Part shown: in pieces, positions 1,229-10,535 of the stretch
Layout of the letters: each line of letters opens with the position of its first letter
Position numbering within the stretch: the first letter of the stretch is position 1
Origin: a virus
Lineage: Duplodnaviria > Heunggongvirae > Uroviricota > Caudoviricetes
Reading direction: 5' to 3' (one strand)
DNA: 23,310 nt
IMG/VR virus record: IMGVR_UViG_3300000553_000015
The notes under the pieces: model-generated
Told to the model about the DNA's origin: nothing
Databases searched by the model: none
What the model saw: the letters and a program-made list of their open reading frames with translations, nothing else
Program-made: the position numbers and the translations under genes

Positions 1229-3283
1229 TTATTTTGTTGTTGCTCGAAGAATTCCATCCCAGTCTTTGGGAAATGAGATATCTTCACCATATGTTTCTAT
1301 TCGTTTAATCATCATATCATAATAGTAGTCAAGTGCACCATTAAAAGAACCTTTTAATTCGAGGCATTCAACTGTTGCTAGCCACCATTGTTGTGATTGA
1401 TAATAATTAAACATTTTATTGTGTTTTAATCGATGTGCGTGTGAACTATTATTTGGTAATATTGTATAGATATCTAACCCAATAGTTTTTCCTTTAACTG
1501 CTATATCATCCAGTTTAATAACAAAATAATCATTCTCTACAAGTTTAGCAGTTGTGGGGCCAATTATTAATAATACACCATAACCTTTGGTTTGTCCTTC
1601 TAATCTAGCAGCAGTTGATACTGAATCACCAAGTACATCATACCCAAACCTTGCTTTAGACCCAATATTTCCGATTAATGTTGGTCCAGTATTAACACCA
1701 GCTCCCATACCAATTTTGGGTTTACCTTGTCGTACTAATTGCTCATTAAATTTGTCAACGGCTTCGATCATTTCTAAAGCAGTTCTTACCGCATTCTTAG
1801 CGTGGTATTTATCATCTAATGGTGCCCCATGTACATGTAAACTGGCATCACCTATGAATTTTATTAAACACCCATCATTCTTTAATACTGGGTCTGAAAT
1901 AGCAGTCATATAGTCATTCATGATTTTAGTTAACCCTTCTACATCTTCCCCATATGATTCCCCAAGAGTTGTAAACCCTCTTAGGTCTGTCATCACTATA
2001 GACAGCTCTTTCTTTTCGCCACCAAGTTTAATTAACTCTGGATTCTTCTGAAGTCTTTCAACCATTACAGGTGACACATAACTTCCAAATTGTTTCTTGA
2101 TTTGTTGTTTTTGTAAAAATTCATTTACAAATTTAATTCCATATGCATGTAAAGCAACCAAAATAATACCGCTAACTAGTGCAGTGATATCTAAAAGATA
2201 CAGATATTCTGTAAAAGCAAACCTACTTCCAATAACAATACACATTATGATAATGAAAGTGCTTGCTAACCCAACATATACCCATCTTGTTAAAATTAGT
2301 AAAAGTAAACATGAAAATAGTAGAATCCCTTCTTCAGCGGTATCTGCCCAAAACGGTCGTTGGATATTCACGTTATTCATCATTGTACTAATTACCGTTG
2401 CTTGCATATCTTGCGGCCAAACACTACCAATACTTGTAGGAACTGGGTTACCTAGTCCAGCAGCACTTGTACCCACGATTACTATAGCACCATCAAAATC
2501 ATCAGGTAAATGTTCTAAACTAAGTGATTTATGTTGTTGACTCCAATCTATCCATATACGTCCTAAGTTATCTGTGCTTATAGTACCAAACTCAGGAATA
2601 CGCATTTTATCAACACCAAATTCATTCAATTTTACTTGAAATGTTGATACACCTGATGCAACTCTAAGTGCTTCAATTGCAATACTAGGATACAGTTTTT
2701 CATTTACTGATACAACTAGCGGCATACGTCTATTAACACCATCAATTTCTGGTAATGTATTTGTTGTTCCTACACCAGCAGCATTCATTTCTAATGATTC
2801 TATATTTGCAATCAATCCAGGATATTGCACAATTCTATCTAAGTATTCTGAACCAATAACTACACTTCCTGGTGTTTTTGGTAAATTTTTAAATTGCTGA
2901 GACGGAACATTGCTTAACACAACAGGAAATTCTGATAAGTATTTTGCAAGTTGGGAATCTTGTCCACTACGATCCTTATCTGGCATAAGAACATTCCAAA
3001 CAACTAGACCTGCATTTTTAGAATATAAATCATTAATAATTTTTGCATACTCACCACGTGGGAATGGCCATTGACCATATTTGTTTAATGATTCTTCATC
3101 AATATTTACAGTAACAACACTATTTTCGGTTGGGTGTTTATTTGCTATTAATGTGTCAAAATATCTTAATCTAATTGATTCTACAAATGTCGGGTCTGAT
3201 ATTCTTATAACTAAGATTATTGCTAGTGTAATTAACGCTGTCCACACACTTGTTGCTATTTTTCTAAGGATCTGTTTGGTCAT
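1229..3283 (-). CDS. CHASE2-domain class III adenylate/guanylate cyclase
   Basis: N-terminal TM; CHASE2 (VVTVNIDEESL..YGQWPFPR, EIDGVNRRMPL); three TM helices; cyclase motifs SIVMTDLRGFT, KFIGDA, GVNTG..LIGNIGS...YDVLGDSVSTAARLE. K and D specificity residues suggest ATP. Confidence 0.92.
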   Translation of the reverse strand: MTKQILRKIATSVWTALITLAIILVIRISDPTFVESIRLRYFDTLIANKHPTENSVVTVNIDEESLNKYGQWPFPRGEYAKIINDLYSKNAGLVVWNVLMPDKDRSGQDSQLAKYLSEFPVVLSNVPSQQFKNLPKTPGSVVIGSEYLDRIVQYPGLIANIESLEMNAAGVGTTNTLPEIDGVNRRMPLVVSVNEKLYPSIAIEALRVASGVSTFQVKLNEFGVDKMRIPEFGTISTDNLGRIWIDWSQQHKSLSLEHLPDDFDGAIVIVGTSAAGLGNPVPTSIGSVWPQDMQATVISTMMNNVNIQRPFWADTAEEGILLFSCLLLLILTRWVYVGLASTFIIIMCIVIGSRFAFTEYLYLLDITALVSGIILVALHAYGIKFVNEFLQKQQIKKQFGSYVSPVMVERLQKNPELIKLGGEKKELSIVMTDLRGFTTLGESYGEDVEGLTKIMNDYMTAISDPVLKNDGCLIKFIGDASLHVHGAPLDDKYHAKNAVRTALEMIEAVDKFNEQLVRQGKPKIGMGAGVNTGPTLIGNIGSKARFGYDVLGDSVSTAARLEGQTKGYGVLLIIGPTTAKLVENDYFVIKLDDIAVKGKTIGLDIYTILPNNSSHAHRLKHNKMFNYYQSQQWWLATVECLELKGSFNGALDYYYDMMIKRIETYGEDISFPKDWDGILRATTK

Positions 3284-3479
3284 TGATGGTATGTCCTAGT
3301 GTTGTTGCTCCAGCAATTTCTGCTGCTGTAAAATGTTTGCATTTATCACCAATTTTGTAATCACAGATTGGTTTTTTTGGAGATGGTCTAATAAGTTTTA
3401 ACTCATTAATTGGTGCTGCTATATGTTGAGTTGCACAACCTGACAGAATTATTAATGAAAATAATATTATTTTTCTCAT
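3264..3479 (-). CDS. Small lipoprotein
   Basis: MRKIILFSLIILSGC lipobox, two further Cys, overlaps the cyclase start. Confidence 0.65.
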   Translation of the reverse strand: MRKIILFSLIILSGCATQHIAAPINELKLIRPSPKKPICDYKIGDKCKHFTAAEIAGATTLGHTINDQTDP

Positions 3480-3485
3480 GTGTAT

Positions 3486-4505
3486 TTATTTTGTTTGCAT
3501 ATCTATTAGATTATCTTTAAAAATCTTCCAACAATTGTCCCAAGTCCATTTACTACTTGCATTATACACAATATCTCTATCTAAAGTTAAACATGATTCA
3601 ACACTAAATGATAGATCATCAGACATATGTCCAGTAACATTCTGTTCTAAAATATCAATAGGACCTGGAACAGGATATGCAGCAACTGGCGTTCCTACAC
3701 TCAAACTTTCAATGATAACTATACCAAACGTATCAGTTCTACTAGTAAACACAAAGACATCTGATTTAGCAAAATATTTTGCTAAATCACTTCCAGTTTT
3801 TGAGCCAACAAACCATACATTTTTATATTTCTTTTTTAGCTCTTCTAGGTATGGGCCATCACCAACTACTATTTTAGACACGTTTTTATAGTTTGGTAAT
3901 ACTAACTGACAGAAATCATCTAGACCTTTTTCTTTACTTACACGACCAACACTTAATAGTATTATTTCTTTATCTGAAAACTTTTTATTTTCATCACGTT
4001 TAAAAATAGTTCGATCAACACCACGTGTCCATGGTATGATATCACCATTAAACCCATGTGCTTTTAAATCATCGACCATTGTTTTAGTAGTTGTTAGCAC
4101 TTTACCAGAATGCTTATGAAACCATCTTACATAAGAATATGTAATATTTTCTGGAATATTATATAACTTTTTTAGAAATTCTGGAAATTTTGTATGATAT
4201 GCTGATGAAAAATTTATATTATGTTTCTTGCACCAAAAAAGAACGGCTAATCCAAGTGGTCCTTCTGTCGCAATATGAATATAATCTGGGTTAATTGCTT
4301 TGATTTTTTTATCAATCTGCCACGGAATACTTATTTTTACTTCTGGGTATCCAAATGCTGGAAAATTGAAGAACATATCTGGAAAGATATATTTTACAAT
4401 ATATCCATTTGTTAGTGCGTGTTTTTCTATATTTTTATAAGTAGTAACTACACCGTTGATCTGGTTATGTGAATTATCTGTGACTATCAATATTGTTTTT
4501 TTCAT
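3486..4505 (-). CDS. GT4 glycosyltransferase, Agt-like (glycosyl-diacylglycerol synthase family)
   Basis: ILIVTD...QINGVVTT, YPEVK, PDYIHIATEGPLG, AYHTKFPE, VGRVSKEKG, DVFVFTSRTDTFGIVIIESLSVGTPVAAYPVPGP (D-x7-E GT4 motif). Confidence 0.88.
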   Translation of the reverse strand: MKKTILIVTDNSHNQINGVVTTYKNIEKHALTNGYIVKYIFPDMFFNFPAFGYPEVKISIPWQIDKKIKAINPDYIHIATEGPLGLAVLFWCKKHNINFSSAYHTKFPEFLKKLYNIPENITYSYVRWFHKHSGKVLTTTKTMVDDLKAHGFNGDIIPWTRGVDRTIFKRDENKKFSDKEIILLSVGRVSKEKGLDDFCQLVLPNYKNVSKIVVGDGPYLEELKKKYKNVWFVGSKTGSDLAKYFAKSDVFVFTSRTDTFGIVIIESLSVGTPVAAYPVPGPIDILEQNVTGHMSDDLSFSVESCLTLDRDIVYNASSKWTWDNCWKIFKDNLIDMQTK

Positions 4506-4506
4506 A

Positions 4507-4674
4507 CTATTTCTTTAAGCAAACATATAGTTCGTTATCCCTGTGATCTTTTGATTTTTGTAATTGTTCCATTGCTACCTTGCATGAATCTTGAGAACTA
4601 AATTCACCGATTGGTTGCCAAAATAGACTAGTACCCAATGCTGCAACTGCTTGTAATGCTACTAAAATATACAT
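4507..4674 (-). CDS. Small hypothetical protein (55 aa), possibly exported
   Basis: Not in the ORF track. MYILVALQAVAALGTSLFWQPIGEFSSQDSCKVAMEQLQKSKDHRDNELYVCLKK; AAGGA RBS; TAG at 4507-4509 lies 1 nt before the GT4 ATG. Confidence 0.65.
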   Translation of the reverse strand: MYILVALQAVAALGTSLFWQPIGEFSSQDSCKVAMEQLQKSKDHRDNELYVCLKK

Positions 4675-4726
4675 AAGTTATTCCTTTATATTATTATAAT
4701 GGTGTAATATACGGCCATATATCATG

Positions 4727-5479
4727 TTATTCTTGAATTGAAGTCCAGTATATTATTTCAAATGACCCATCATGATTTTCAACTAATGCAGATAACGATT
4801 CAACCCAATCTCCATCATTCATGATTATAATACCATCTATATCTTTTATAACAGGGGTGTGTGTATGCCCTGCTATGACACCATCAAACCCTCGTTTTTT
4901 ACAATAGTTTGCCAATGTTACTTCAAACTGAAACAAAAAGTCAACCGCTGATTTAACTTTGTGTTTAAGGTATTTACTTAAACTCCAATAACCAAATCCT
5001 AATTTATGTCTAATCCAATTAAATTTGTTGTTAACCGCTAATATTAAATCATAACCTTTATCACCTAAAAATCCAAGCCATGGTGCAATTTTACTAATCC
5101 CATCAAATAGATCGCCGTGAGTAACAAGATATCTTTTACCATCTACCCCAATATGTTCTGCTTGATTATGAATTGAAATTTTACCAAATGAAATGCCAAG
5201 ACCAATCATTGGACGTAGAAATTCATCGTGATTTCCAGCTACATAGATTACTTTTGTACCATGCTTTGCAATACCTAGTATTCTACGAACCACATTGGAA
5301 TGACTTTGCTTCCACTTGAGTTTATTTTGTTGAATCTTCCATCCATCTATGATATCTCCTATTAGGTATAGGGTCTCACAAGAATTATGTTTTAGAAAAT
5401 TATTTAGTTGATCTGCTTTGCAATCACGAGTTCCAAGATGAACGTCGCTAATAAAAATAGTGCGATATGTTTTATTCAT
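4727..5479 (-). CDS. Calcineurin-like metallophosphoesterase, PlcP/LpxH-like (probable phospholipase C)
   Basis: YRTIFISDVHLGT..CKA, LYLIGDIIDGW, YVAGNHDE, HGDLFD, GHTH, NDGDWVES. The pattern matches PlcP-type enzymes, and the gene neighbours an Agt-like GT4. Confidence 0.82.
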   Translation of the reverse strand: MNKTYRTIFISDVHLGTRDCKADQLNNFLKHNSCETLYLIGDIIDGWKIQQNKLKWKQSHSNVVRRILGIAKHGTKVIYVAGNHDEFLRPMIGLGISFGKISIHNQAEHIGVDGKRYLVTHGDLFDGISKIAPWLGFLGDKGYDLILAVNNKFNWIRHKLGFGYWSLSKYLKHKVKSAVDFLFQFEVTLANYCKKRGFDGVIAGHTHTPVIKDIDGIIIMNDGDWVESLSALVENHDGSFEIIYWTSIQE

Positions 5480-5482
5480 AAA

Positions 5483-5491
5483 GTATTTATC
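5483..5491 (-). promoter_or_regulatory. Late-promoter-like motif GATAAATAC
   Basis: One mismatch to T4 late consensus TATAAATA, 3 nt upstream of the phosphoesterase ATG; no SD present. Confidence 0.4.
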
Positions 5492-5522
5492 GCACTATTT
5501 TTAAAAATATATTAAATTTATG

Positions 5523-5681
5523 TTACAGTTTTACGATTGTCCAACGGGCTGAAAATGGTTTATTTTTTTCTTTATGTTTTAATATTTTTTTATATTCTTC
5601 TATTCTTAATGAATATAATTTTTCATTATCACCAGTTAGACAAGCATTTAAAACTTCTTTTACAAGTTTCTTTTGTTTCAT
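5523..5681 (-). CDS. Small basic hypothetical protein (52 aa)
   Basis: Not in the track. MKQKKLVKEVLNACLTGDNEKLYSLRIEEYKKILKHKEKNKPFSARWTIVKL with GGAG RBS. Confidence 0.65.
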   Translation of the reverse strand: MKQKKLVKEVLNACLTGDNEKLYSLRIEEYKKILKHKEKNKPFSARWTIVKL

Positions 5682-5704
5682 GCTATTCTCCAGTAGACTA
5701 GTAT

Positions 5705-6577
5705 TTAGTTTAATTTGCTTTCTATAAAAGAAACAATAGCACCTGCAACATCGGTATTACAATATTTTTCAAAACCACTAAATCCTGGGTTTGAGTTGGC
5801 TTCACATACTCTAAATCCTCGTGAATCAAACAGTAAATCTATACCTGCTATATCTAATTTTAGTATATTAGCAGCATTTACAGCTATTTCAGCTATTTCT
5901 GGGGTTATTTCAAATGATTCACCAGTTCCACCATTTGTAATGTTAGCACGGAAATCTCCATCAGGTGCAGTTCTTTTCATAGCACCTAGAACTTTCCCAC
6001 CTATGACCAATACTCTTAAGTCTTCACCAGGTCTTTCACCAATATACTCTTGTGCTATTAATACCTTTGTATTATATACAATATTGACAAAATCTACAAA
6101 TCTTCGATAATCTTCTGTGGTATTACATAAATGAACACCTTCACCAAAACTTCCAACTACTACTTTTATAATACATGGAAATCCAATATGTTCATTTACA
6201 AGATCATTTGTTATTGGGTGTTTTACTATTATTGTTGTAGGAACCGCAATACCGGCTTTACTTAATATTTCACCTGAATGAAATTTATCTTGAACTATGT
6301 TAATACTATCACTTGAATTAAAACATGGTATATTAGATAGTTCAAAATATCTTACAACTGATAGATCTTTTCTGCCGATACCAGCACCTACCCTTACTAG
6401 AATTGCTTTTGGTAATTCAAGTTTTTCACCATCATAGTAAATACCATCGTTAATTATGATATCAATTTTTTCAAAATAACAAACTTTAGCGACAATTTCT
6501 TTCTCTTCAAACTTTTCGATTAGCTTTGTTGTTTCATATTCGTGTTTACTTTGTTTAGCTAAAATTATAACTGACAT
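5705..6577 (-). CDS. RimK-family ATP-grasp ligase
   Basis: QDKF...L..AGIAVPTT, GFPCIIKVVVGSFGEGV, IAQEYI, DLRVLVIGGKVLGAMKR, DFRANITNGG, GIDLL, VCEANSNPGF. Confidence 0.88.
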   Translation of the reverse strand: MSVIILAKQSKHEYETTKLIEKFEEKEIVAKVCYFEKIDIIINDGIYYDGEKLELPKAILVRVGAGIGRKDLSVVRYFELSNIPCFNSSDSINIVQDKFHSGEILSKAGIAVPTTIIVKHPITNDLVNEHIGFPCIIKVVVGSFGEGVHLCNTTEDYRRFVDFVNIVYNTKVLIAQEYIGERPGEDLRVLVIGGKVLGAMKRTAPDGDFRANITNGGTGESFEITPEIAEIAVNAANILKLDIAGIDLLFDSRGFRVCEANSNPGFSGFEKYCNTDVAGAIVSFIESKLN

Positions 6578-6714: not shown

Positions 6715-6735
6715 AAAATTAATATTACAGAAAAA

Positions 6736-7854
6736 TTACTGTCCTTGTTGTACAGAAATTTTAGGACATCCACCGGTTGTAGCACAGTTGAAGTTTATTG
6801 AATATGATTGTTGTAAAGATCCAGCTTGATTTAGACTTAAATCTACTGGTAAACCTGACAACGTGACATTTGCCATATGATTACCAGAGCCTTGTTGTGT
6901 GATATCAACATTTTTATTACCACCACTTAATGTGGTTTCTATATACTGATTGCCATTACCCGATTGATTTGTAATTAATGATGAATTATTACCTATTATA
7001 TTAGCAGAAACTTGTTTACTTCCACCTTCATTTGATTGTGTCAATGATGCGGTATTTGAGTTTCCTATTATATTTAATGTTGCGTAGTTGGTAGAGGTAC
7101 TATTGGATGATGATTGTGTAATGTTTACGGAATTACTGTTACCATTGCCATAATAATTTGCGTAGTTATTTTTAGTACCTGTTTGATTTACGGTTATTGT
7201 ATTTGCAGACCCAATTTGATCAATATAAACCTTACTATCCGATGTTGCTCTATTGATATAGGATTGGATATTGGCATTATCAAATACATTTATAGTAAAT
7301 GGCGATGATGATGCACCACAACATACTGGTGGAACAAATACATTAACAGATGTTCCTAAGTTTGTAAATGGAACAACCGCTATGCCACCAATATCCCAGT
7401 CAAGTTGTATAACAGCCCCACCACCATTTTCATAATACCAAACATCCATGGTATATATTTGCCCTGAAGTAAGTAATATACTACCAGAACTATTATAATT
7501 TGCCGGACCTTGTTCTATCCAGTTATTGATTACAGTGGTACCATTTATAGTCATATAAAATCCATCATCACTACGATCATAAAATGTTACATTTTTCAAA
7601 CCAGTGTTTGTAGCACCGGGCCACAGAATATATCCAGTAAAGTGTATTAAAACCCCATCGGATAATCCACTATTCATAACAACTCCAGAACCCCAATCAT
7701 AGTTTAACGTATTAGCAACTCCAGATGCTAAGACTGTTCTGTTAGTTGTCATTGATGGTGTTGCACCACCTGCTGCATATACTGTATAATTTAATCCAGC
7801 AATATCAACTGCGTAAACATTAAAACTCAATAAAAATAAAATGATATATCTCAT
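6736..7854 (-). CDS. Secreted PA14-domain / curlin-repeat fusion protein
   Basis: Signal peptide; PA14 motifs (HFTGYI, SDDGFYMTING..VINNW, YYENGGGAVIQLDW); C-terminal N/Q/G-rich repeats (VYIDQIGSANTITVNQTG, GNSNSVNITQS, GNSNTASLTQS, NVDITQQGSGNH). Confidence 0.82.
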   Translation of the reverse strand: MRYIILFLLSFNVYAVDIAGLNYTVYAAGGATPSMTTNRTVLASGVANTLNYDWGSGVVMNSGLSDGVLIHFTGYILWPGATNTGLKNVTFYDRSDDGFYMTINGTTVINNWIEQGPANYNSSGSILLTSGQIYTMDVWYYENGGGAVIQLDWDIGGIAVVPFTNLGTSVNVFVPPVCCGASSSPFTINVFDNANIQSYINRATSDSKVYIDQIGSANTITVNQTGTKNNYANYYGNGNSNSVNITQSSSNSTSTNYATLNIIGNSNTASLTQSNEGGSKQVSANIIGNNSSLITNQSGNGNQYIETTLSGGNKNVDITQQGSGNHMANVTLSGLPVDLSLNQAGSLQQSYSINFNCATTGGCPKISVQQGQ

Positions 7855-8936
7855 TGTTTTGGTACTCCTGGATTTTGAATAATTGTAACAATATTTCCAC
7901 CAGGAGTACCAGTACCTATAACTGCTGCCCCCGGACTATAGTTTTGTGTAATAAATACTGATGTGTTTGATGCAAAGCCAAATGTTTTTACTTCTGCGTA
8001 ATCTTGTGAACCTAATACCCTAAATGCAATACCTTTTCCTTTACCTTGTGTATCAGTTGCTGCTGAATTTTCCCATGAAATACATACATTAGTAGTTGGG
8101 TCACACCCATTCTCATTTGCTTCACGTATTAATGAAAGTAATCTTGCTTCGGAATCTTGTGTATTTTTGGAAACTTGATTAACTAACCTTCTAGCCATTT
8201 CCTCTTCCATTGCTTGAACTTCTTTATCTTTTGGTGATTTACTGGACTCCTTGACTACCTTTTGCACTTCCAGTGGTTTGACTAGAATAAGGTTATTTGA
8301 AATCTTTGATTCTATTATGTTAACAGTTGTTGGTAGACTGGGTGACATTGTTGCACTTTGGACATATGTAGCTTCATATGCTTTATCTAATGATACGGTA
8401 CCAGCAAGTGTCGTAACATCTATTTTACCTACTGCGCATATATTTTCTTGAAGTTCGTACTGTTTGATATCTTTTTTATCTTTACAACTTGGTACTAATA
8501 CTATTAAAGACTGACCAGCTTCATCTACAGTCATTGTGAAATCTGTACCTCTAACTGCAATAGTAGCTGTAGGTGTTTTTATTCCAACTTGCTGTGGATT
8601 ATTTTTAGCAATTTGCCCAGATGCATACCTTACTGTACCCATACCTACTTTTAAAGCAAGTTTTCCAGCATCTGATTGTTTTGGGTCAAACACAAAATCA
8701 TCTATTAATAATCTACTATTTTCATTTACTTTGACGTTTGTATCATCTTTGAATTTTATATCAGCAACACAACCACCGGTAATATAAGTGTCCATACTTT
8801 CTATTGAAGCACCTTTATTACCTGGTAGTTTTTGTTTATTACGTTCTATTTGGCAGGATATTCCTTTAGTTTCTCCCACTGAGCCAATATCAGCCCATAC
8901 ATTAGAAGAAACCAACATGAATATAATCCACCACAT
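7851..8936 (-). CDS. Exported FecR-domain protein
   Basis: Signal peptide; FecR core (DTYITG, IKFKDDTNVKVNENSRLLID, G.VRYASG, IKTPTATIAVRGTDF). Confidence 0.85.
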   Translation of the reverse strand: MWWIIFMLVSSNVWADIGSVGETKGISCQIERNKQKLPGNKGASIESMDTYITGGCVADIKFKDDTNVKVNENSRLLIDDFVFDPKQSDAGKLALKVGMGTVRYASGQIAKNNPQQVGIKTPTATIAVRGTDFTMTVDEAGQSLIVLVPSCKDKKDIKQYELQENICAVGKIDVTTLAGTVSLDKAYEATYVQSATMSPSLPTTVNIIESKISNNLILVKPLEVQKVVKESSKSPKDKEVQAMEEEMARRLVNQVSKNTQDSEARLLSLIREANENGCDPTTNVCISWENSAATDTQGKGKGIAFRVLGSQDYAEVKTFGFASNTSVFITQNYSPGAAVIGTGTPGGNIVTIIQNPGVPKQ

Positions 8937-8937
8937 A

Positions 8938-9723
8938 TTATCTTGCTATTGCTGATTGTGGGCTCACTATGGTTGCAGAACTTGTTCTAACAGTAACGGT
9001 ATTGAAGTCACCTTGAGTTAATATATTAACGTTAGTATTGTTTGCACCTTGTTGTTGGGTGTATATAACATTACTACTTCCAGTAATATTCTCAACTAAA
9101 GAATGAACACCAACATCATTTTGTTGTGTGTTTATAATGTTGCTATTACCTGAAATATTAATAGTACTATTATCGCTAGAACCTGCTATTCCAGAAGTAC
9201 TAGTTATATTTTGTGTAACTTGGTTGAAGTTACCAGATGCTGATAAGAAACTGGTAATATAGTTACCTATTAAATTTTGTAATGATAAGTTGCTATCACC
9301 TGTTATTAATTCGGTAATAGTATTATAGTTATTAGATGGATTTCCTTGACTACCAACTGTTAATGATGTTTGGTTACTACTTCCAGTAATGGTACTAGTA
9401 TACATATTGTTACCACCTAGGATATTATATTGCGCCCAATCGTTATTACCATGTTGTGTAATGTTTAGAATATTGCTACTACCTGTAACGGTTCCATAGT
9501 TCAATGCACTTGCTGCTACTGGTGTAACCGATGTAACACCAGCTGAATCAACCGAAATAGTTCCAGATGTTCCACCAACGGTGTTAGTTCCACCTACTTG
9601 TTCAACATTAATAGTATTTGATGTTCCTATTTGTTCTATATAAACATTATTTGGTCCAGTTGATATTCCAACTCCAAATGCTGTTTGTGATAGAAATGTT
9701 GTTAATAAAAGATATTTTTTCAT
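8938..9723 (-). CDS. Curlin-repeat (CsgA/CsgB-like) secreted protein
   Basis: Signal peptide; repeats such as NNVYIEQIGTSNTINVEQVG, SNILNITQHGNND, GNSNIINTQQ, GSSNVIYTQQQG, NILTQGDFNTV. Lies directly after csgG. Confidence 0.8.
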   Translation of the reverse strand: MKKYLLLTTFLSQTAFGVGISTGPNNVYIEQIGTSNTINVEQVGGTNTVGGTSGTISVDSAGVTSVTPVAASALNYGTVTGSSNILNITQHGNNDWAQYNILGGNNMYTSTITGSSNQTSLTVGSQGNPSNNYNTITELITGDSNLSLQNLIGNYITSFLSASGNFNQVTQNITSTSGIAGSSDNSTINISGNSNIINTQQNDVGVHSLVENITGSSNVIYTQQQGANNTNVNILTQGDFNTVTVRTSSATIVSPQSAIAR

Positions 9724-9728
9724 TGCTC

Positions 9729-10535
9729 CTACCCCTTAAATGCCCAGATTCCTTTTCTAGCACCTTCTTTAATTGTTTCGACAACTGCTGCTTGTATTGC
9801 CTTATTAGTAGCTCTATTAATGCTCTCGTTAATAGAACCGCCTACCTCTGCTTCCACTGCCATTGTTCCGGCATCTATAAATTTAAGTAATCCAACACGA
9901 TCTAAATAACTTAAAACAGTTTTAGTGATTGTAACACTAGTTAATACTTCTCCTGTATTAACCGAAACAGTTCTTAAACTGATAGTTACTGTATCACTTT
10001 GGTATTGTGTATCTGCTCCAATACCAAAGAATCTTACACCTGCTCCACCTGTTATTGTATTAGAATCATATCCTACGATTGACCCTTCTACTATAATACC
10101 AGCAAATGTCATAGCAGGCAATGATATTGCATCTTTACCTTGAAATTGTTCACGCATTTGACGAATCATTTGACGTTCTTTAATCAAATTCTCTAATCCA
10201 ACACGTTCTACAACTTTAAACCACACACCATTACCAGCATCTTGTAATGCTTTAATCAAGTATCCTTCACCACCTTGAGTAACAGCAGAACTTAAACTGG
10301 CAATTCCAGTTATTGATTTACGTTGACCAGTTTTATCCATAAAACCATATACTGCAACAGGAACAGGTCCACCAACTGGCGGTTTTAATTGATTTTCTTC
10401 TTTTTTAAGGTATGTGCTAATACTTTCATTTACCGGATCATCAAACTGTTCACCAGTTAATAACTTATGTATAGAACTACCTGTTGCACATCCTTGTAAT
10501 AATGTTATTGCACATAATATAATAATCTTTTTCAT
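9729..10535 (-). CDS. csgG: Curli secretion channel lipoprotein CsgG
   Basis: Lipobox LLQGC; VAVYGFMDKTGQRK, LSSAVTQG, WFKVVERVGLENLIKERQMIR, IIVEGSIVGYD, LRTVSVNTGEVL. Confidence 0.92.
   Translation of the reverse strand: MKKIIILCAITLLQGCATGSSIHKLLTGEQFDDPVNESISTYLKKEENQLKPPVGGPVPVAVYGFMDKTGQRKSITGIASLSSAVTQGGEGYLIKALQDAGNGVWFKVVERVGLENLIKERQMIRQMREQFQGKDAISLPAMTFAGIIVEGSIVGYDSNTITGGAGVRFFGIGADTQYQSDTVTISLRTVSVNTGEVLTSVTITKTVLSYLDRVGLLKFIDAGTMAVEAEVGGSINESINRATNKAIQAAVVETIKEGARKGIWAFKG

Follow-up and report, generated by a model that had tools for sequence, protein, structure and literature searches.

A phage-encoded plcP-agt gene pair that probably mines the host membrane for phosphorus

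The 23.3-kilobase (kb) stretch of viral DNA analysed here (the window; bases 4973-28282 of the 37.9-kb IMG/VR virus record IMGVR_UViG_3300000553_000015) encodes a metallophosphoesterase of the PlcP type and a family 4 glycosyltransferase (GT4) of the Agt type, which are separated by a small open reading frame (ORF), orf55. It appears that this locus is the PlcP-Agt lipid-renovation pathway of Proteobacteria in a phage-borne copy, wired to the host phosphate-starvation regulator PhoB, which would free phosphorus for replication; we give this reading a probability of roughly 70%, and the phage probably mines the membrane of its host for phosphorus. The identity of the two enzymes holds because phylogeny, signature residues, synteny with bacterial operons, and purifying selection all agree. 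An earlier note, made from the sequence alone, had reported the three co-oriented ORFs, and all three were recovered on the minus strand with identical coordinates:

plcP, 4727-5479, minus strand: 250 amino acids (aa); Pfam Metallophos (E=1e-11) and Metallophos_2; predicted Mn-metallophosphoesterase of the PlcP type (a phospholipase C directed at membrane phospholipids)
orf55, 4507-4674, minus strand: 55 aa, between plcP and agt; no family
agt, 3486-4505, minus strand: 339 aa; Pfam Glycos_transf_1 (4.8e-23), Glyco_trans_1_4, and Glyco_transf_4 (1.6e-14); GT4 of the Agt/GTcp clade, predicted uridine diphosphate (UDP)-sugar:diacylglycerol glycosyltransferase

In the proposed scheme, PlcP, as a Mn-dependent, LpxH-like enzyme with a helical lipid-binding lid, would remove the phospho-head group from phosphatidylethanolamine, phosphatidylglycerol, and phosphatidylcholine of the host, and diacylglycerol would be left behind in the membrane. 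With a UDP-sugar as donor, Agt would then add glucose, galactose, or glucuronate to the diacylglycerol, and the products would be phosphorus-free glycolipids, namely MGDG (monoglycosyldiacylglycerol) together with GADG (glucuronic acid diacylglycerol), so that the bilayer would stay intact. Host phosphatases would turn the released phospho-alcohols into phosphate, which would feed genome replication. Expression would be tied to host PhoB via a Pho-box-like repeat and the -10-like element GATAAATA. With regard to the individual steps, it was reported that SAR11 agt alone is sufficient for glycolipid formation in Escherichia coli (PMC4796936).

The phosphoesterase is classified as PlcP and not as LpxH, the enzyme that acts on UDP-2,3-diacylglucosamine. 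Its scores against the two NCBIfam LpxH equivalog models were 48.3 bits (PRK05340, cut-off 134) and 40.6 bits (TIGR01854, cut-off 190), both below the cut-off, and the match to the LpxH models was confined to the N-terminal 120 residues. In three Beta-/Gammaproteobacterial genomes, a true LpxH of 194-220 bits was found elsewhere on the chromosome. Genomes G002 and G005 each encode a homolog of the window PlcP (30-35 bits on the LpxH models) besides the true LpxH, which indicates that LpxH and the PlcP-like protein are paralogues, and in the two Alphaproteobacteria searched only the homolog of the window PlcP was present (50-59 bits). A phosphoesterase tree was built from 113 rows, comprising E. 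coli LpxH, three LpxH proteins above the cut-off, and 109 PlcP-like rows, and a branch with a support of 100 split the four LpxH from the PlcP-like rows, the window protein being among the latter. The PlcP-type identity proposed earlier is thus upheld, as grouping with LpxH, which had been named as its refutation, was not what the tree gave. The PlcP-like rows include agt-adjacent genes of SAR11, Kordiimonas, Rhodospirillaceae, and Derxia. The phage PlcPs form one clade with a support of 99, which attaches to an unresolved polytomy, and neither host nor donor can be inferred from this tree.

Residue-level comparison gave the same assignment. The window protein shares the motif GNHDE (His84) with every PlcP-like row of the alignment, whereas GNRD is found in the LpxH of E. 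coli and of genome G003. It was reported that this His-to-Arg change (Arg80 in PaLpxH) is restricted to LpxH, that it is present in all known LpxH sequences, and that the Arg contacts the beta-phosphate of the substrate (Okada et al., PMC5016852). The metal-binding motif set (DxH, GD, GNH[D/E], H, and GHxH) is complete, and an alignment of 32 sequences shows no variation at D12, H14, D42, N83, H84, H121, H205, and H207. The window protein is 47-53% identical to homologs of SAR11, Kordiimonas, Rhodospirillum, Derxia, and Hirschia, versus 17-19% to LpxH (19% to that of E. coli); the figure is 46.7% for the PlcP encoded beside the GTcp-numbered glycosyltransferase of the SAR11 genome L114 and 50-53% for the other bacterial homologs. 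Characterised PlcPs are 46-51% identical among themselves (PMC9239053, PMC8528852), and LpxH has served as the outgroup of a PlcP tree (PMC9239053).

The AlphaFold (AF2) model of the window PlcP, with a predicted local distance difference test score (pLDDT) of 81, has a calcineurin-like core like that of LpxH and a two-helix lid. Its top 25 fold matches in the PDB are all LpxH, with template modelling (TM) scores of about 0.55-0.6, on the basis of which the modelled fold would be that of a lipid-directed phosphoesterase. The two enzymes share a calcineurin-like core and a helical insertion forming the lid, and databases name the homologs LpxH. However, the window PlcP has His84 in place of the invariant Arg, a different lid sequence, and a separate clade, and it fails the equivalog models. 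It differs from bacterial PlcP in that it consists of the 250-aa core only, the variable C-terminal tail being missing.

The glycosyltransferase is, as judged from its sequence, an Agt/GTcp-type diacylglycerol glycosyltransferase. The key residues of GTcp from SAR11 HTCC7211 have been established by mutagenesis (Wei et al., PMC8231724). According to the same study, the enzyme has a His104-Asp256 dyad, with Asp where GT4 enzymes usually have Glu; Glu cannot substitute, and D256E loses >90% of activity. It uses the UDP-sugar motifs GRVAxEKN and FPSxTDTFG and the donor-site residues Gly16, Gly82, Gly85, Arg190, Lys195, Thr257, Phe258, Gly259, and Glu264, and binds diacylglycerol through His104, Thr162, Arg163, and Trp320 (PMC8231724). 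The reference for numbering was a 334-aa glycosyltransferase (GT) of the SAR11 genome L114, in which all 14 residues stand at exactly the published GTcp positions. When aligned to it, the window GT keeps 14 of the 14, with the dyad as His104 and Asp258, all nine donor-site residues conserved, and His104, Thr160, Arg161, and Trp322 as the equivalents of the diacylglycerol site. Its sugar motifs read GRVSKEKG and FTSRTDTFG, and the N-to-G and P-to-T changes are common to the phage subclade.

A member of the Agt/GTcp clade would be expected to show identities of about 40% or more to other members, versus <25% to other GT4 families, and the window GT fits this, being 42-48% identical to plcP-adjacent SAR11 GTs. 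Homologs at 42-48% identity were found in 31 of 101 Pelagibacteraceae genomes. In the GT tree, the phage GTs form a clade with a support of 99, and E. coli WaaG, WaaB, and the other GT of the phage stand on saturated branches. The best PDB match reached only E=2e-8, and the top NCBIfam scores were for lipid-acceptor GT4s, all far under the cut-off. The Agt-type GT4 annotation in the earlier note is consequently supported by the full residue set, including the diacylglycerol-binding positions, and by the distance from WaaG and WaaB. A subgroup of the phage GTs, represented by positions 8910-9908 of a 513-kb phage contig (L089) and by L005, carries Glu at the position of GTcp Asp256 (FPSKWETFG), and these Glu-bearing phage GTs may differ in activity or in the donor that they use.

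In bacteria, plcP followed directly by the GT gene on the same strand was found in 30 of 76 loci and in 15 of 15 SAR11 loci, with gaps of 14-234 nucleotides (nt); this order corresponds to the plcP-agt operon that Sebastian et al. called 'type 2' (PMC4796936). The window has the same arrangement, agt lying 222 nt 3' of plcP on the same strand. Among the 80 IMG/VR loci collected, 71 viral loci had enough downstream sequence, and agt was found in 35 of these, being downstream and co-oriented in every case (35/35). The pair is inherited within phages, since PlcPs and GTs of phages each fall into a well-supported clade of their own. The phosphate-transport gene pstS adjoins plcP in Pelagibacter phage Mosig and in genome G108.

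Some relatives have other neighbours. Mosig EXVC030M (MT647606.1, 93031-94866) encodes a PlcP homolog 50% identical to that of the window, divergent to the adjoining pstS, and no agt was found near it. In a contig labelled as a Haliscomenobacter metagenome-assembled genome (MAG) (L002, 6001-7462), the gene after plcP (73% identical) encodes a GtrB-like family 2 glycosyltransferase (GT2), not a GT4. This is probably a mis-binned phage contig, as its PHROGs include a phage DNA polymerase and an endonuclease, and the same probably applies to all four 'MAG' matches of 66-76% identity (Haliscomenobacter, Fischerella, Gammaproteobacteria, and Bacteroidia); the MAG labels were not used as host names because these contigs are probably phage. 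In the 513-kb contig L089 (4475-7676), genes for a fatty-acid desaturase, rubrerythrin, and rubredoxin lie just 5' of plcP-agt, which makes for a broader lipid-modifying neighbourhood than that of the window.

With regard to regulation, three elements 5' of plcP are relevant:

orf52, 5523-5681, minus strand: small conserved ORF, often 5' of phage plcP
Pho-box-like direct repeat TGTAAC-N5-TTTAAT, 5511-5527, minus strand: overlaps the orf52 stop codon and lies 31 nt 5' of the plcP ATG
GATAAATA, probable -10 element, 5484-5491, minus strand: 4 nt separate it from the plcP ATG, as seen in the sequence itself

A common plan was seen across 78 viral loci, in which TGTMAY-N5-TGTMAY is followed, after about 10 nt (or, where a third repeat is present, about 21 nt), by G/A-TAAATA, 4-6 nt, and the ATG. 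A repeat with a score of at least 11/12 occurs at -75 to -10 in 34 of the 78 viral plcP loci compared with 0.26% of control windows, an enrichment of about 170-fold. As a positive control, sites upstream of bacterial plcP were scored in the same way, and 18 of 89 loci had one versus 0.35% of controls; 13 of 15 SAR11 plcP loci possess the site, in the form TTTAAC-N5-TGTAAC. The window site, TGTAAC-ATAAA-TTTAAT, scores 11/12 against TGTMAY-N5-TGTMAY and is one of three such sites in the 23.3 kb. Of 79 loci, 22 have ATAAATA at most 27 nt from the ATG, with G/A-TAAATA variants in many more, and CGATAAATA is conserved in L089 and in another relative, L092.

The earlier note had spoken of a late-like promoter, with expression at peak nucleotide demand, by which GATAAATA at 5484-5491 was most likely meant. 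This element is a 7/8 match to the late consensus TATAAATA. In a T4-type late promoter, TATAAATA stands about 6-7 nt 5' of the transcript start and is followed by a leader with a ribosome-binding site. No exact TATAAATA was found upstream of these genes (3 occur in the window versus 6.4 expected), and no Shine-Dalgarno sequence precedes plcP (5477-5500). The same geometry, with a -10-like element near the ATG and no Shine-Dalgarno sequence, recurs in many relatives, and the plcP mRNA may be leaderless or nearly so. With a Pho-box-like repeat ahead of the -10-like element, an order shared with many related phages and with SAR11 plcP, the upstream region resembles a PhoB-dependent promoter more than a late promoter. 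The proposal of late timing was therefore not borne out, and the arrangement is suggestive of control of plcP by PhoB.

Scans of the window itself gave little. The canonical E. coli Pho box, with at most 3 mismatches, gave 4 sites versus 2.5 expected (not significant), so that the Pho-box-like signal came solely from comparison across relatives. A sigma-70 scan returned 20 sites versus 22.2 in shuffled sequences, i.e., no excess, and TATAAAGGA, present only 5' of orf55 and of rimK, occurs twice versus 0.58 expected, which 16 of 100 shuffles equalled (not significant). The single terminator-like hairpin detected lies inside agt. A second Pho-box-like repeat, CAGTAAT-TTTT-CTGTAAT (6724-6741, minus strand), differs from CTGTAAT-N4-CTGTAAT at 1 position, and no other site in the 37.9-kb record comes within 1 mismatch of that pattern. 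The repeat is situated at the 3' end of a PA14-curlin gene, 5' of a 24-codon ORF and rimK, and the block rimK-orf52-plcP-orf55-agt could have two phosphate-responsive entry points.

The source virus is a T4-like freshwater giant phage of about 340 kb, this size following from the CheckV rating of the 37.9-kb record as 11% complete. By arithmetic, such a genome holds about 0.7 million P atoms per copy. The record encodes the distal subunit of a T4-type long tail fibre, homing endonucleases, and several PHROGs of the auxiliary metabolic gene (AMG) type, while the window encodes S21, MazG, DnaK/Hsp20/ClpS, heme oxygenase and bilin reductase, and CsgG/CsgF, with many PHROG matches. An identical PlcP is present on metagenome contigs of up to 334 kb, of which one of 257.7 kb was read, and relatives 74-77% identical occur in complete terminal-repeat phage genomes of 372 kb and 161 kb. 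A relative of the window PlcP is encoded on no fewer than 596 IMG/VR contigs. The description of the pair as phage-borne is accordingly sound, given the phage genes in the record, the identical protein on long contigs, and the relatives in complete phage genomes.

Sequence comparison with L092 indicates that plcP, orf55, and agt are under purifying selection, the ratios of nonsynonymous to synonymous substitution rates (dN/dS) being 0.12 for plcP, 0.08 for orf55, 0.16 for agt, and 0.14 for orf52. At 93% identity to its L092 counterpart, orf55 exceeds its neighbours (84-85% for PlcP and 81% for the GT). As read from the sequence, its N-terminus is hydrophobic over 19 residues, and two Cys are present. 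It matched no family in Pfam, NCBIfam, or PHROGs, and a single cluster of relatives (78%, 55 aa) was found among 1.84 billion representatives. It is absent from the bacterial plcP-agt spacers (14-234 nt), and none was detected when the 80 IMG/VR loci were compared. These features mark orf55 as a real, conserved, lineage-specific gene of predicted membrane type and as a phage addition between plcP and agt. A homolog of orf52 stands 5' of plcP in 21 of the 80 IMG/VR loci; orf52 itself has no family match, PHROGs included.

Several known systems resemble this locus. The bacterial 'type 2' plcP-agt operon, represented by SAR11 HTCC7211 PlcP and GTcp, Pseudomonas aeruginosa PA3219/PA3218, Methylosinus OB3b, Sinorhizobium meliloti PlcP, and Agrobacterium tumefaciens Agt, has the same order and strand. 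The identity of the window PlcP to bacterial homologs (47-53%) is close to that among characterised members, its metal motifs and the 14 GTcp residues of its partner are intact (PMC4796936, PMC8231724, PMC9239053, PMC8528852), and the candidate Pho-box-like repeat upstream is of the SAR11 TTTAAY/TGTAAC type. However, the window pair is virus-encoded, falls in clades of its own, and has a 55-aa ORFan inserted, and its promoter region has a degenerate Pho box, no Shine-Dalgarno sequence, and a -10-like element only 4 nt from the ATG. The pair also resembles pstS, phoA, and phoH, auxiliary genes of the Pho regulon in cyanophages and pelagiphages of the T4-like kind, which are host-derived, directed against phosphate scarcity, and located in plastic regions; in relatives of the window, plcP adjoins pstS and follows a Pho-box-like site. 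Unlike these genes, plcP-agt would draw phosphorus from the host's own membrane and not from the water.

Phosphorus often limits bacteria and their phages, and a 340-kb genome is costly in this element. Phage genes already known to meet this need, among them pstS and phoA, serve to import outside phosphate, whereas PlcP-Agt would tap an internal membrane store and would constitute a new class of AMG. Among the papers searched, none was found that links PlcP or PlcP-Agt to phages. GenBank calls the homologs of Mosig and S-SRM01 UDP-2,3-diacylglucosamine hydrolase/diphosphatase, virome surveys list 'lpxH' as an AMG of lipopolysaccharide (LPS) biosynthesis, and a pelagimyophage study treats GTs solely as O-antigen modifiers (PMC7029224). 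A phage PlcP-Agt pair would also set right a systematic mis-annotation in virome surveys, and it would be predicted that infected P-starved cells exchange phospholipids for MGDG or GADG. A broader proposal, that a widespread, PhoB-wired viral plcP-agt module lets large aquatic phages sense P starvation and turn phospholipids into nucleotide phosphorus, the cell being kept whole by glycolipids, is put forward tentatively and is somewhat less likely to be true than false. If this broader proposal is true, the 'lpxH' counted in virome surveys would be misassigned; part of the glycolipid signal that marks P-limited bacterioplankton would be virus-driven; and the 55-aa membrane ORFan would be a phage-specific accessory factor in this lineage.

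A number of points weigh against the lipid-renovation reading. The Pho box of the window is weaker than those of its relatives, its promoter-proximal repeat being degenerate and 19 nt (not about 10) from the -10 element, and the Pho-box-like consensus was refined on the same data on which it was scored. About half of the viral plcP loci have no agt within 5 kb, so the pair is not obligatory, and pstS is not found near plcP in this window. The 'characterised' PlcP/GTcp reference is the SAR11 genome L114, recognised solely by the residue numbering of its GT. In addition, further enzymes are required to free phosphate from the head groups.

Among the alternatives, the one that survives best, although it is considerably less probable than phosphorus mining, holds that the same chemistry serves another purpose, such as adjusting the physical properties of the envelope, blocking superinfection or grazing, or supporting a curli/FecR/cyclase module, and that the gain of phosphorus is incidental. 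The pair indeed lies in a co-oriented block flanked by curli/FecR genes and a CHASE2 cyclase, the missing pstS is in keeping with this idea, and three papers connect the remodelling of lipids with changes in phage attachment and in grazing (PMC9938194, PMC9457565, PMC9804370). The curli linkage is, however, not conserved. In L092 (6903-9945, compared with 3486-6577 of the window), the order rimK-orf52-plcP-orf55-agt is retained, but the entire curli/FecR/PA14 block between bilin reductase and rimK is missing, which makes the curli module a separate insertion. The Pho-box-like repeats and the adjacency of pstS in relatives point to phosphate stress as well.

It is improbable that the GT acts on phage DNA, protein, or a polyprenol-linked sugar with its adjacency to plcP being incidental, or that the phage picked up the two genes recently and carries them without using them in infection. 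DNA or O-antigen is often the target of phage GTs (PMC7029224), and the plcP loci that lack agt, some with a GT2 instead (L002), would fit such a view. Against it stand the invariable position of agt, where present, 3' of plcP on the same strand, the monophyly of both phage clades, dN/dS values of 0.12-0.16, and the complete set of GTcp residues. An LpxH acting on UDP-2,3-diacylglucosamine together with an LPS-acting GT, as implied by the names given to the homologs by JGI and GenBank, by the surveys listing lpxH as a viral AMG, and by the LpxH identity of the nearest solved structures, is very improbable and was already largely refuted in silico by the equivalog models, the His in place of Arg (PMC5016852), the tree, the 19% identity, and a GT that has the diacylglycerol-binding residues of GTcp and is very distant from WaaG and WaaB.

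On the far side of agt from plcP, the proposed lipid-renovation genes are bordered by the CHASE2-adenylate/guanylate cyclase gene (1229-3283, minus strand). Its product matches phrog_35576 from end to end (E=5.7e-207), which implies that a close copy exists in an already sequenced phage, and a 71-aa ORF at 3264-3479 overlaps the start of the cyclase by 20 nt.

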